From positions 3,584,001 through 3,648,000 of the forward strand of contig OY970342.1 in NCBI GenBank assembly GCA_963717505.1: a stretch of 64,000 nucleotides of DNA. Direction: 5' to 3'. The stretch comes from Candidatus Eiseniibacteriota bacterium (GTDB lineage: Bacteria; Eisenbacteria; RBG-16-71-46). Both the position numbers and the translations under genes were made by a program. The stretch's first letter is position 1. Each line of letters opens with the position of its first letter. The notes under the pieces are model-generated. The model ran no database searches and had not been told where the DNA came from. It saw only the letters and a program-made list of their open reading frames with translations. Positions 49,867-59,910 of the stretch are shown one piece after another.

Positions 49867-51602
49867 CTACGGCCGAGGTCTTTTCCCCCGCGGCTTCGGG
49901 CCGCGCCAGGGCGAGGTCGAGCCGCGCGTCGCGCCGCGAGCCGGGGGTCGCGACGGCCTTCGAGCGGGACCACGCGACGGCCCGAACGAGGGACCACGTG
50001 AAGGACCACGTGACGGAGCCACGTGAGGGCCCACGTGAAGGTCCGCGAGAAGATTCCCGAGCGGGGCCGCCCGACATACCACGTGACGGTCCACGGGGCG
50101 GCCCGAACGATGGGCGGCGCGAAGGTCCGCGGGACGGTCCCGCTGCCGAGTTCCGCGGCATGCTACGTGCCGGTCCACGCGAGGGTCCGCGAGTCGGCCC
50201 GAACGACGGGCGGCGCGAAGGACCGCGGGACGGTCCCGCTGCCGAGTCCCGCGGCATGCCACGGGCCGGCCCACGCGAGGGTCCACGAGTCGGCCCGAAC
50301 GACGGGCGGCGCGAGGGTCCGCGGGACGGCACCGCTGCCGAGTCCCGCGGCATGCCACGGGCCGGCCCACGCGAAGGTCCGCGAGTCGGTCCGAACGACG
50401 GGCGGCGCGAGGGTCCGCGAGACGGTCCCGCTGCCGAGTCCCGCGGCATGCCACGTGCCGGCCCACGCGAAGGTCCGCGAGTCGGTCCGAACGACGGACG
50501 GCGCGAGGGTCCGCGAGACGGTCCGCGGCTCGGTCCGCGACTCGGTCCGCGACTCGGTCCGCGAGACGGCCCACGAGACTCGTCGCGGGTGCGCACGCGA
50601 TCCGGCCGGCCAGCCGCGGGTCGGCCTTCGGCGCGATCTCGGAATCGCGGGCGCTCCCCTTCCGGCCGCGCGCGTCCCGTGGCGCTCGGAGTGGGACGCC
50701 AGGTTCGCGGGGCGCCGGGACGTTCGCGCCGACCTCGGGCTCCGGTGGGCCGGCGCGACTCATCGTGCGTCGCGGGCGCGACCTTCGCACGCTCGGCGTC
50801 GCGCTGCCGGCGATCGAAGCGCGACAACCGGGCCGCTCCCGCGGGCAGCGGGCGCGGCCGCGCCGACGCCGTACGCAGGCGCTCGACCTCCTCGGCCGAC
50901 AACTCGCGCCACATTCCGCGCTCGATCGGCCCCAGTCGCACCGGACCGTAGCCCGAGCGGTGGAGCTTGAGCACGTTGAGCCCGACCGCCTCGCACATCC
51001 GACGCACCTGCCGGTAGCGACCCTCGTGGATCGACAGGCCCAGAACCGCGCTGTCGTCGTCACGCGCGACCACGCGCACGCGCGCCGGAGCGCTCATCGC
51101 GTCCCGGCTCGAACTCACACCGGTTTCCAGCCGGCGCAGCTGTCCCTCGTTGGGCTCGCGGTCGACCCGCACCCGGTAGATGCTTCTCCACGCCGTAGCG
51201 CGGATGCATGAGGTGGTGCGCGAGCTCGCCGTCGTTGGTGAGGATCAGGAGTCCGCTGGTGTCGGCGTCGAGGCGCCCGACCGGGAACACGCGCGGGCCG
51301 GGGGGCAGGAACTCGCGAATCGTCCGCCGGCCCTGCGGGTCACTCAACGTCGTGATCACGCCGACCGGCTTGTTGAGCACGAAGTAGCGTGGCGTGGCGG
51401 CGCCGGGCAGCAGCCGGCCCTGCACCTCGACGCGGTCGCGATCCGGTTCGACCAGCGTGCCCGGCTCGCGCACGATCACGCCGTTGACGCGCACGACGCC
51501 CGACTCGATCAGGGCATCGCAGGCCCGGCGTGAGCCGAGACCCCGGCGCGCGAGCAGCTTGTTGAGTCTCAGACCCGCGCCCGCGGGCGGCGTGTTACTC
51601 AC
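49867..51602 (-). CDS. rluB: RluB/RsuA-family pseudouridine synthase with long Arg/Gly/Pro/Ser repeat tail (frameshifted in this sequence)
   Basis: S4 domain RLNKLLARRGLGSRR, NKPVG, VGRLDADTSGLLILTNDGE, EGRYRQVRRM. Follows scpA-scpB. Confidence 0.88.
49960..50580. repeat. Coding tandem repeat: 96-bp unit (about 4.5 copies) built from 12-bp subunits
   Basis: Anchor gaacga(c/t)gg(g/a)cggcgcga recurs at about 50105, 50201, 50297, 50393 and 50489. Encodes GPSRGPSRRPSFGPTRGPSRGPARGMPRDSAA. Confidence 0.93.
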
Positions 51603-52418: not shown

Positions 52419-53296
52419 CGGGTCGCTTCCTTCTCGGAGCGCGGCGACGATCGTGATGTCGCCGAAGTTCTCGTTCTGAACGACGCGTCGCCTGCCCGAG
52501 CTTGATCAGCTCGAGCAGCGCGATGAAGGTCACGATCATCTCGGCGCGCGCCCGGCACTGCAGCAGCAGCTCGGTGAACGACGACCGCGCCGCGGCTCGG
52601 CGAGCAGGCTCGCGATCAGGGCGCGATCTTGTCCTCGACGTCGAACGCCTCGGCCTGCGACCTCGTAGACCGACTTGCTCGGGCACCCGCGCCATCACGC
52701 GGTTGAGCGCGTCGAGCAGGTCGAACAGCGTCGCCGGCGCGAGCGGCAGCGGCCCGGCTTCGTCCTCGCCCGGCACCATGCCGCGCTCGAACAGCAGGCG
52801 GCGCTCGTCCTCGCGCAGCTTGAGCGTCCCCGCCGCCTCCTTGAACTGTCGGTACTCGACCAGGCGCTGGACCAGCTCCTCGCGCGGATCGCCCTCCTCC
52901 TCCTCCTCGCCGACCGCGGGCAGCGGCAGCAGCATCTTGGCCTTGATGCGCATCAGCGTCGCGGCCATGACCAGGAACTCGCCGGCCACCTCGAGGTCGA
53001 GCGCGCGCATCAGCTCGAGGTACGCGAGGTACTGCTGCGGTGATGTGCGCGATCGGAATGTCGTAGATGTCGATCTCGTCGCGCTTGATCAGGTGGAGCA
53101 GCAGGTCGAGCGGGCCCTCGAAGCGCTCGAGCTTGATGGTCACCATCCGCACGCGCTGCGGCGGGCCCGCCGCCAGGGACTCGGCCGCTTCGGCGCGCTC
53201 GGCGATCGCGGCGGCATCGAGCGGCGGATCCACCGGCACCTCGATGCTCGGCGCGTCGAGGTCGGTGGCGCCGGGCGGGCGGCGATCGTCGTTCAT
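52415..53296 (-). CDS. scpA: Segregation and condensation protein A (frameshifted in this sequence)
   Basis: [50 protein letters not shown]. 3' end approximate. Confidence 0.95.
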
Positions 53297-54360
53297 CGCG
53301 GCACCGCGGCGGCGGGCGACTTGAGGCCCATGCGCCGAGCGCACGGCATCCATGGTCTGCTCGGCGACCGCGCGCGCGCGCTGGTCGCCGTCCGCGATCA
53401 CGTCGCGCACCGCGTCGGGATCGCGCCGCAGCCGCTCGCGGCGCTCGCGCACCGGGGCCAGCGTGTCGGCCAGGATCTGCGCCAGGTGCTTCTTGTCGGG
53501 CACGCAGGCCAGCTGCCGGCGCGGCAGCGCGCGCGCGATTCGTCGGCGCCTCGCGGGATTGAACTTGCGGTGGTACTCCCACACCACGCAGCCCGGGTGA
53601 CCGTCGGTCGGGATCGGCCTCGGGGCGGCCGGGATCGTTGGCGCGCATCTTCTTGGGGTCGGTGTAGGCCTGCTTCACCTTGGCCGCGATCTCCTCGGGC
53701 GAATCCGCGAGCAGGATCGTGTTGCCCATCGACTTGCTCATGCGGCCGCCGTCGAGACCGCGCAGACGCGGGAACTGCGGTGAGCATGCGCCTCGGGCTC
53801 CGGGAACACCGGGGTCGCGGTCCTGGCAGTAGAGGAAGTTGAAGCGGCGCGCGATCTCGCGCGTCAGCTCGACGTGCGGCACCTGGTCCTCGCCCACCGG
53901 CACGTGGGTCGCCCGGTAGAGCAGGATGTCGGCGGCCTGGAGCACCGAGTAGCCGAGGTGGCCGTAGCGAGATCGTCTGCTCGTCGAGGTGCAGGTCGCG
54001 GATCTGCTCCTTGAGGGTCGGGATGCGCTCGAGCCGCGCCTTGCTCACCAGCATCGAGAGCAGCAGGTGCAGCTCGGCGTGCTCCTTCACGTCGGACTGC
54101 ACGAAGATCACGCTCTTCTGCGGATCGAGTCCGGCCGCCAGCCAGTCGACGCACCATGTCGAACGGTGTCGGACTGCAGGCGGGACGTGTCCTCGAAGCC
54201 GGTCGTGAGCATGTGCCAGTCGGCCACCATGTGGAAGTTGTCCCAGCCCTCGTTCTGCAGCCGCACCCAGTTCTCGAGCGCGCCCGACGTAGTTGCCGAG
54301 GTGGAGGCGCCCGGTCGGGCGCATGCCGGAGAGGATGCGGCCACGGCGGGCTTGAACCAC
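53293..54360 (-). CDS. trpS: Tryptophan--tRNA ligase (frameshifted in this sequence)
   Basis: [40 protein letters not shown]. Confidence 0.96.
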
Positions 54361-54482: not shown

Positions 54483-54512
54483 ACACTATCGAGAATGCGC
54501 GCCGGGGGTCAA
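54483..54512 (-). promoter_or_regulatory. Putative sigma70 promoter of the trpS-scpAB-rluB operon
   Basis: TTGACC-N18-TAGTGT on the minus strand. Confidence 0.5.
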
Positions 54513-54562
54513 GGCTCGAAGCTTAAGGTAATGCATGAAGCCCAGTTCGGGTTTCGTCTGCA

Positions 54563-54591
54563 TTGCCAGTGTCGGGGTGCGCGGCTACTTT
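54563..54591 (+). promoter_or_regulatory. Putative sigma70 promoter giving a leaderless peroxiredoxin mRNA
   Basis: TTGCCA (54563-54568)-N17-TACTTT (54586-54591)-N6-ATG. No SD sequence. Confidence 0.55.
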
Positions 54592-54597
54592 GCCCCC

Positions 54598-55095
54598 ATG
54601 GACACACCGCCGCGTCCAGAGGATCTCGTTGGCCAGCCCGCTCCCGACCTTTCGCTCACCGACACCAACGGCACTCCCTTCCGACTGCACCAGTACATGG
54701 GCCGCTGCCCGCTCGTCCTGTTCTTCATCATTCGCAGCGGCACCCCCGGCTGAGTACGTGAGGTACGCGAGTTTCGCGTACATCACGAAGCGTTCCGCAA
54801 CGAAGGCATCGCACTCGCCGGGGTCAGCCGCGACCCACCCGAGAGGAACCGCACCTGGACCGAGCGGCTGGAGATCCCCTACCCCATGCTGTCCGACGCC
54901 GACGGCCAGGTCGGGCGGGCTCTCGGAATCGTGACCCGGGTCGGCATCGGGACCTGGCACCTGGAATTCTTCCGGCGCACGACGTTCCTGATCGATGCGC
55001 GGGGGATCATTTCGGCGGCGTGGGGCAAGGTGCGCGTACGCGGCCACGCCCAGGAGGTGTTGTCGGTGGCGAAGGTGGCGCGAACCCTGAAGTAG
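54598..55095 (+). CDS. Selenocysteine-containing peroxiredoxin (BCP/PrxQ family), 165 aa, Sec at codon 52 (TGA 54751-54753)
   Basis: One frame from ATG 54598 to TAG 55095 with a single TGA: VGQPAPDLSLTDTNG...LVLFFIIRSGTPG-U-VREVREFR...GVSRD...YPMLSDADG...RRTTFLIDARG...GHAQEV. The TGA occupies the peroxidatic Cys of the TxxC motif. Confidence 0.92.
54757..54787 (+). promoter_or_regulatory. Bacterial SECIS element
   Basis: CGTGA-G-GTACGCGA-[GTT]-TCGCGTAC-A-TCACG. The apical loop begins with GU and lies 17 nt after the TGA. Confidence 0.85.
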
Positions 55096-59094: not shown

Positions 59095-59910
59095 GTGAAG
59101 CGGATCGCCATCGCGGCAGCCTTGCTCGTGGTCGCGGTTCTCGTTTGGCGCAGCCAGCTCGTTCACGTGAGCGGGTCCGAGCCGAAACCACTCGCCACCA
59201 TCCCGGCCCGCGAGCGCGCGCCGGTCGCGTTCGACGTGGCGCTGCCGGCGGTGCCGGTGGGTGTCGCCCGCGTCCGCGGCGGCCAAGGTGCGGTGCTCAT
59301 CCACTACTGGGCGCCGTGGGAGCCGAACGCGCGGGAGCAGATCCGCCACCTCGACTCGCTCGCCCGCGCGTTCGACTCGGATTCTCTCGAGGTGGTCGTG
59401 GTGTGCTTCGACCCCTACCCTTCGGTGGCGCGCTTCGTCGCGCGGCAACGCATCCGGACGCGGGTGCTGCTCGACCACCAGCGGGTACTCGCGGCAGTCC
59501 TGCCCTGCCCTGTGCTGCCGTTCACTTACGTGATCGATGCCGCAGGACGCGTGGCGGCGTCTCAGCCGGGCCCGGTCGACTGGCTCGCCGCTCCGACGCG
59601 GGACGCGCTCCAGGAGTTGCTGCGCGAGACTCCTGCCGAGCGGCTACGGACTCCCGGGCCGAGCCCCACCGACCCCGTGAGCGCGCAACCAGGTCGCGAG
59701 CGCGACGTCGTACGCCGCCCAATCCACGTTGGCCGACTCGACGTGGCCGGCGGACGGGACGCGATGGAGCGTGAACCGGTCGGGTCGCGCGGCCGCGAAA
59801 CGCTCGCTGACCTCGATCGGCACCGTCTCGTCGGCATCGCCATGAATGAGCAGCATCGGCGTCGTGAAGCGGTCGGCGTAGCGAACCTGAACCAGATCTT
59901 CCCAACGTAG
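59095..59910 (+). CDS. Membrane-anchored TlpA/ResA-like thioredoxin-fold protein lacking CxxC
   Basis: VLIHYWAPWEPNA, VLLD, LPFTYVIDAAGRV, GPVDW. The 3' end is uncertain because the ORF overlaps the convergent hydrolase by about 265 nt. Confidence 0.75.
   Translation: MKRIAIAAALLVVAVLVWRSQLVHVSGSEPKPLATIPARERAPVAFDVALPAVPVGVARVRGGQGAVLIHYWAPWEPNAREQIRHLDSLARAFDSDSLEVVVVCFDPYPSVARFVARQRIRTRVLLDHQRVLAAVLPCPVLPFTYVIDAAGRVAASQPGPVDWLAAPTRDALQELLRETPAERLRTPGPSPTDPVSAQPGRERDVVRRPIHVGRLDVAGGRDAMEREPVGSRGRETLADLDRHRLVGIAMNEQHRRREAVGVANLNQIFPT

Follow-up and report, generated by a model that had tools for sequence, protein, structure and literature searches.

An in-frame UGA codon in a genome of Candidatus Eisenbacteria lies within an intact gene that probably decodes it as selenocysteine (Sec) and encodes a peroxidase with a single Sec, a BCP/PrxQ fold and an outside reductant. 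The step on which this reading depends, SelB-dependent insertion of Sec at the UGA, is very likely on the comparative and genomic evidence. The gene lies in a window of 64,000 nucleotides (contig OY970342.1, positions 3,584,001 to 3,648,000), and coordinates without a contig or locus label are positions in this window. As the gene is mis-called across a whole uncultured family, whose database entries are fragments without the active site, the result corrects the annotation of that family as well as of a single locus.

Gene structure and annotation

The plain track of open reading frames places two separate frames here, 54535-54753 and 54886-55095, which the preliminary description had joined into one gene of 165 amino acids interrupted by a TGA at 54751-54753. 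This joining holds, as the two frames are the halves of one 165-aa frame, 54598-55095, with a single internal TGA, read in translation as IIRSGTPG-U-VREVREFR. The features discussed below are as follows.

54563-54591, plus strand: predicted promoter, TTGCCA (54563-54568), 17 nt, TACTTT (54586-54591), 6 nt to the ATG (inferred)
54598-55095, plus strand: coding frame of the 165-aa BCP/PrxQ-fold selenoprotein, ATG to TAG, translated with TGA as U
54730-54732, plus strand: Ile45, at the position of Pro in Pxxx(T/S)xxC by alignment to BCP structures
54742-54744, plus strand: Thr49, the T of TxxU
54751-54753, plus strand: in-frame TGA, codon 52, predicted Sec52 at the peroxidatic position by alignment to the BCP/PrxQ Cys
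54757-54787, plus strand: whole hairpin by folding, including a 5-bp lower stem (54757-54761 with 54783-54787) that is not conserved
54763-54781, plus strand: predicted SECIS upper stem-loop by folding and comparison, 8 bp here and 7 conserved, loop GUU at +18
54976-54978, plus strand: Arg127, at the catalytic Arg position, aligned with the R of ERSTF in 5enu

The start codon is supported by an ATG or GTG 50-51 codons upstream of the TGA in 11 of 12 TGA genes. A leaderless mRNA beginning at the ATG, as suggested earlier, is favored by the promoter pattern, since TTGNNN-(15-19)-YANNNT-(4-9)-start is found in 16 of 28 TGA orthologues and at 71 of 20,000 random ATG/GTG triplets, a control that represents random triplets rather than real gene starts. 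The particular TTGCCA/TACTTT site, which matches at 8 of 12 positions, was not listed by a consensus promoter scan, which counts against this part of the description. No signal peptide was seen at the N-terminus by inspection.

That standard annotation would miss the gene was also borne out: databases carry C-terminal fragments that begin after the TGA. Among the 120 protein-search matches listed, 65 are such fragments, many named 'peroxiredoxin Q/BCP', and 58 of these 65 carry R[E/G]FR inside their first 12 residues. The full-length family proteins among the listed matches are five Cys forms (P0003-P0007) and one Gly form (P0002), and one further Cys form, P0122, occurs among the 50% representatives. 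P0002, on a 1.6-kb contig, has Gly at the Sec position (NGSPGGLRE) and represents either a one-base error or a dead variant. One fragment, P0044, is identical to the orthologue of genome G017; its NCBI label is an acidobacterial genus, and the genome search places G017 in the family of the window.

Fold and active site

The protein matches PF00578 (AhpC-TSA) with 103 bits against a cut-off of 26, and its domain carries the T/SxxU motif, with Thr in 24 and Ser in 4 of the 28 TGA orthologues. Its best solved relatives are BCP/PrxQ proteins; aligned to them, U52 takes the place of the peroxidatic Cys, T49 and R127 match the Thr and the catalytic Arg, and I45 occupies the Pro position. An AlphaFold model, built from 13 sequences with Cys standing in for Sec, has a pLDDT of 91 and TM scores of 0.83-0.88 to PrxQ structures at 30-33% identity. 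Sequence, predicted structure, and the best NCBIfam matches thus all place the fold and nearest relatives in BCP/PrxQ. No NCBIfam peroxiredoxin model reached its cut-off, the scores being 88.7 of 260 for NF053650 and 71 of 140 for NF006960. Also below their cut-offs were the models for PrxU (NF040737, 33.9 of 270), which we take to be of the AhpC/Prx1 type, for SelL-related proteins (31.5 of 120), and for WAxxUGC proteins (30.3 of 300), and Prx-SUH (NF045827) gave no match.

The conserved Arg of the preliminary description can be placed firmly by alignment, as R127 is invariant in 13 of 13 aligned sequences and is predicted to be the catalytic Arg. The replacement of the motif Pro by Ile likewise proved to be general: the residue seven positions before the predicted peroxidatic Sec is Ile in 21, Leu in 3, Val in 3, Thr in 1, and Pro in none of the 28 TGA orthologues, while among 200 ordinary BCP matches examined the motif Pro is present in 179 of the 185 with a readable motif. 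According to PMC4749874 this Pro is absolutely conserved, and its absence from all 28 orthologues therefore suggests that the chemistry of these proteins may differ.

The earlier observation that the protein has no CxxxxC resolving Cys stands and is extended by Arg at +5 in 28 of 28 orthologues, with the correction that the protein does contain one Cys, C37, which is not conserved. It also has no resolving Cys in helix 3 and so is not an atypical 2-Cys PrxQ of either kind. Eighteen of the 28 orthologues are without a further Cys across the scanned region, and a subgroup has Cys at +32 (2 of 28 genomes and 19 of 58 listed database fragments). According to the same source, about one third of PrxQ proteins have no resolving Cys (PMC4749874); one-Cys PrxQs are thus common, and its absence here is, taken alone, ordinary. 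The genome also encodes an ordinary 2-Cys BCP (G000:C1:972012-972458).

The predicted SECIS element

The TGA is followed by a hairpin in which GTACGCGA (54763-54770) pairs with TCGCGTAC (54774-54781) around GTT (54771-54773), so that 17 nt separate the TGA from the loop G, and the loop stands at +18. In a 50-nt stretch the hairpin has a minimum free energy of -21.3 kcal/mol (z = -3.7, with 0 of 200 shuffles as good), and in an 80-nt stretch z is only -1.5. In the folding output the loop appears as UUU, with a G-U closing pair, at equal energy. The string TGA-N12-CGCGAGTTTCGCG occurs once genome-wide. Among the 87,245 genomic TGA triplets, 81 (0.093%) are followed at a similar distance by a stem of at least 8 Watson-Crick pairs with a G-started loop, and the rate after genomic TGC is 0.094%. 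Since the two rates are equal, the hairpin alone is rare without being diagnostic, and comparative support is needed.

This support comes from the upper stem. The GTT loop and the four inner pairs are kept in 28 of 28 TGA orthologues, although these four pairs never vary and also encode R-E-F-R and so are uninformative on their own. Among the outer pairs, 15:29 is kept in all 28 through five pair types, 14:30 is kept in 27, and 13:31 holds in only 8, while at the closing position 24 orthologues have A-U, 1 has G-C, and 3 have no pair. In both TGC orthologues the stem is broken. RNAalifold retains only the 7 upper pairs. The hairpin had been described with an 8-bp upper stem, a GUU loop, and a 5-bp lower stem, all of which are present in this gene, but the lower stem (CGTGA/TCACG) is not conserved in the orthologues, as its pair 9:35 holds in 1 of 12 and pair 11:33 in 4 of 12. 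The covariation that had been proposed as a check was found in the outer pairs: for the first 12 sequences, which are kin and not independent in these statistics, the 9 cells with two-sided changes and the covariation score of 0.234 were matched in none of 500 shuffles and in no slid control. Counted by pairs, two-sided changes (3) did not exceed the shuffles (143 of 500).

Codon choice in the loop also points beyond the protein. The Phe of the loop is encoded by TTT in 12 of 12 genes, compared with 3 of 75 other Phe codons in the same genes and 1,188 of 16,132 Phe codons genome-wide, a bias that reflects a constraint other than the encoded protein. The element thus has the layout of a bacterial SECIS: a stem-loop immediately downstream of the UGA, an apical loop containing G, and conservation that exceeds what the protein requires. 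The 5' arm starts at codon +5, where 2-Cys BCPs encode their resolving Cys, and the SECIS core is only 2-4 substitutions away from the ordinary C-D/G-F/L-R codons in 10 of 10 Cys BCPs checked from the Eisenbacteria order.

Selenocysteine machinery of the host

The preliminary description had supposed that the host has Sec machinery, and selA, selB, selD, and the tRNA-Sec gene are all found in the genome assembly (4.16 Mb, 87% complete). SelA scores 489 bits and SelB 345 bits. The tRNA-Sec, with a UCA anticodon and a score of 67 bits, is the only UCA tRNA among the 49 found and has a long variable arm and a G discriminator. This G73 is presumably the seryl identity element of tRNA-Sec. The selD gene carries its own in-frame TGA (CAG-U-AAK), followed by a hairpin with a G-started triloop at +18, a geometry shared with the peroxiredoxin hairpin. 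selD (G000:C1:3020964-3022153) directly precedes the tRNA-Sec gene, an arrangement shared by G020, G108, and G152.

Two other frames of the genome have an internal TGA followed by a hairpin. One (G000:C1:725926, minus strand; L201:257-2407, minus strand) exceeds the TIGR01591 cut-off and has its TGA in CNRT-U-HAP, as expected for the FdhA selenoprotein, the alpha subunit of formate dehydrogenase. The other (G000:C1:357997, minus strand; L200:562-1248, minus strand) is MerB-like, with 94.6 bits to PF03243 and its TGA in DLVFT-U-RNMLFF; it lies below the cut-offs of the MerB and SaoL models and is likely, judging from its sequence, to be another selenoprotein of the host.

Distribution of the gene and exchange of Sec and Cys

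A first survey of 41 relatives gave 12 orthologues, besides this gene, that are clear of ordinary BCP, 11 with TGA and 1 with TGC. A search of 206 genomes of the phylum with a protein profile then gave 30 full-length members, all in the family of the window (30 of 89 genomes), and at E<=1e-35 none of the 117 genomes outside this family gave a match. The codon is TGA in 28 of the 30 (17 genera) and TGC in 2 (one genus), and the other TGA orthologues share 38-58% identity with this protein and have no further stop within the matched stretches. The alternation of Cys and TGA codons that had been put forward as a check is therefore present, the hairpin follows TGA, and the in-frame UGA is aligned with the catalytic Cys of homologues. 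The flanking genes are each present at 26 of 29 loci. In three low-depth contigs from two other public runs, no difference was listed at codon 54751-54753. In 23 of the 28 TGA genes the terminal stop is TGA as well, and no hairpin core follows it, which indicates local recoding in which one mRNA uses UGA in both ways. A scan of genome contigs with the single protein gave no match, and a scan with the alignment gave 14 loci.

A divergent TGA member, L196 (HLRTPG-U-AHTLREFR, in G108), has no Glu at +3, has Cys at +47, and is apparently without the catalytic Arg (LFQTASF). In G108, which is 97% complete, a tRNA-Sec and a piece of selD were found, and selB was not found at E<=1e-70.

The Cys members of the family carry extra Cys residues, C-4 and C+53 in P0003-P0007, L190, and L194 and C-5 in P0122, and they too are without the motif Pro, so that Sec on its own is a less convincing explanation for the loss of Pro. 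In a tree from which 19 of 58 rows were left out (L040, P0002, and 17 long-branch or redundant outgroups), the Sec group forms one clade in 2% of bootstrap trees (AU p = 0.317). A further tree joins L196, a TGA member, to the main Cys group as its sister (100/98). These trees favor a reversion from Sec to Cys, though they do not prove it.

Loss of the Sec trait by the host was rejected as the origin of the Cys forms, as G020 and G152 keep Sec genes. Both have a tRNA-Sec and a TGA-containing selD, and in addition selA was found in G020 and the SelB wing domain in G152; neither genome (82-83% complete) yielded a full selB at E<=1e-70.

Alternative explanations

That the TGA reflects an error, a pseudogene, or a change of code is very unlikely. 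A true stop, whether in a pseudogene, in a gene split into two chains, or through an assembly error in a contig rich in frameshifts, might be suspected from the neighboring genes of the window, which are broken into several frames, and from the 110-aa downstream protein that gene callers propose from a GTG or ATG just after the TGA. This is highly improbable given that the diverged orthologues of 28 genomes share the TGA and no other stop, that 97 metagenome loci (selected by pattern) have the same TGA, that the contigs of two other runs agree at the codon, and that the downstream piece has no catalytic residue. Still less probable, to the point of being negligible, is a genome-wide reassignment of TGA to an amino acid, as nothing was found in its favor, the terminal stop of most orthologues is itself TGA, and the other AhpC/TSA genes of the genome have no internal stop (17 of 18 matches). 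A third way around Sec is that a suppressor-type tRNA or near-cognate misreading places Cys, Trp, or some other residue at the UGA, with the hairpin only stimulating readthrough. UGA-reading Cys tRNAs exist in a few bacteria, and a Cys is accepted here in relatives (2 of 30 genomes, P0003-P0007, and P0122), but the sole UCA tRNA is the tRNA-Sec with its long variable arm and G discriminator, selA and selD are present, and the hairpin has the SECIS geometry of selD, all of which makes readthrough improbable. Taken together, these three explanations account for only a slight share of the probability.

A different question is what the Sec protein does. It may be a specialized single-selenol redoxin rather than a general peroxidase, acting for example on protein or lipid hydroperoxides, in an oxidation relay, or on sulfur or selenium species. 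The loss of the motif Pro throughout the TGA orthologues, the long branch of the clade (100/90), and the failure to reach any peroxiredoxin equivalog cut-off are consistent with such a role, as are the normal BCP that the genome retains and the invariants of the family's own (Trp at +35, +68, and +90, Arg-Arg at +74/+75, Arg at +96, and His at +98, in 12 of 12). These features are set against the T/S and catalytic Arg that are kept, the match of the fold to PrxQ, and the occurrence of similar departures among ordinary Cys BCP matches, 6 of 185 of which also have no Pro and 12 of 158 of which have an Arg before the catalytic Arg. A specialized function, and equally the examples given of it, is on balance rather unlikely, and a one-Sec peroxidase is preferred.

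Proposed mechanism and significance

If the gene encodes a one-Sec peroxidase, a leaderless mRNA would begin at the ATG, and SelB with Sec-tRNA(UCA) would bind the hairpin, whose GUU loop lies 18 nt beyond the UGA, and insert Sec52. When selenium is absent, the ribosome would stop at the UGA and release a 51-aa piece. In the complete protein, the selenolate of Sec52, placed by T49 and R127, would attack a hydroperoxide to form a selenenic acid, which an external thiol, either small or on a thioredoxin-type partner, would resolve, recycling the Sec as in 1-Cys peroxiredoxins. The ordinary 2-Cys BCP of the genome may cover when selenium is short.

More tentatively, and with the chances leaning against it, the family could be a natural one-selenium peroxiredoxin in which the Pro and the resolving Cys were given up because Sec makes both unnecessary, the SECIS was built on the resolving-Cys codons, and the gain of Sec and the loss of the resolving Cys were one linked, repeated step. 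Such a step is suggested by the same core in seleno-BCP lineages that do not group with the Eisenbacteria clade and by the new nearby Cys (C-4, C+53, or C-5) of members that would have returned to Cys. Against it stand the Cys members without Pro, the selection of the core by pattern, and the AU p of 0.32 for the Sec-to-Cys direction. As natural Sec and Cys versions exist at one locus, in genomes that have all retained Sec machinery, the family offers a test of whether selenium removes the need for the Pro or the resolving Cys. It also offers a minimal 7-bp SECIS with natural compensatory changes on the catalytic helix.

Neighborhood of the gene

Upstream lies a divergent gene (53000-54310, minus strand), which we take from its HIGH/KMSKS-like motifs to resemble a tryptophanyl-tRNA synthetase; Pfam gave no match in the piece of it that was submitted. 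A promoter-like TTGACC-16-GATAGT (54485-54512, minus strand) faces this gene, and a GGGTCAAG-like stretch recurs at the upstream promoter-like site in several orthologous loci. Between 45000 and 59000 many genes are split across frames (glgC-, scpA/scpB-, pseudouridine synthase-, and PilB-like genes and a SpoIIE phosphatase, named by eye except for SpoIIE), which suggests indel errors in the assembly. The pseudouridine-synthase-like frame (49900-50700, minus strand) has a C-terminal tail with several near-identical repeats of about 32 amino acids (GPSRGPSRRPSFGPTRGPSRGPARGMPRDSAA). A second AhpC-TSA-like redoxin (59095-59910, plus strand; G000:C1:3643266-3643559) has HYWAPW-E-PNA where CxxC is expected and is thus apparently without a redox Cys.

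Comparison with known selenoperoxiredoxins

Seleno-peroxiredoxins were already known as a class, as the preliminary description had said. Among the prokaryotic selenoprotein families in PMC9312934 (Table 1) is a Sec-containing Prx that belongs to COG1225 (Bcp) and carries TxxU, its motif is given as PxxxTxxU (PMC13188914), 43 Sec-Prx genes are reported from Sargasso Sea data (PMC1088965), and five Cys-to-Sec conversions had been inferred by 2006 (PMC1794560). The gain is therefore one for specialists. No paper on Eisenbacteria with selenocysteine or peroxiredoxin was found, though subscription papers and supplements may list such genes, and none of the literature listings points to a seleno-BCP without the Pro.

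The Eisenbacteria proteins share with the Sec-Prx family (listed representative WP_011365628.1) the PF00578 domain, the BCP-type fold, Sec in TxxU, a SECIS right after the UGA, and Cys homologues. They are set apart by the published motif PxxxTxxU, since they have Ile, Leu, Val, or Thr in place of its Pro. Failing both this strict motif and the curated BCP cut-offs, the protein is filed as a variant rather than a standard member. PrxU of Eubacterium acidaminophilum, which reviews cite as the experimentally shown case, is also a Sec-containing peroxiredoxin, but its model has 233 positions, compared with the 165 amino acids here, and is missed by a wide margin in bits.

With Cys-type BCP/PrxQ proteins (Xanthomonas PrxQ 5iiz/3gkm, Burkholderia 5enu, and M. 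tuberculosis BcpB 5epf) the protein shares its predicted fold, its length, the active-site T and Arg, and the beta-hairpin before the Arg, whereas it has Sec for Cys, no Pro, Arg at +5, and no conserved Cys. The nearest parallels are the seleno-BCPs of metagenomes. A pattern scan gave 97 TGA loci, 83 of them distinct, of which 17 belong to other BCP lineages of the type xxxGTPG-U-TxEARGFR, with the SECIS core on codons +5 to +8; as the scan pattern imposed the core, these loci show that such genes exist and not how common they are. They include at least three other seleno-BCP lineages among L071-L158 (e.g., L079, L083, L096, L098, L123, and L158). A single origin of these seleno-BCPs and the Eisenbacteria clade was rejected (AU p = 0.018 under LG+G4). 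The metagenome proteins resemble the Eisenbacteria protein in the site of the TGA and in the pattern-selected core, but they lie outside its long-branched clade and most keep the Pro (12 of 17, with Ser in the other 5, all close kin). What is new in comparison with these systems is a clade of Ca. Eisenbacteria without the motif Pro, mostly without a second Cys, and with its SECIS on the resolving-Cys codon.
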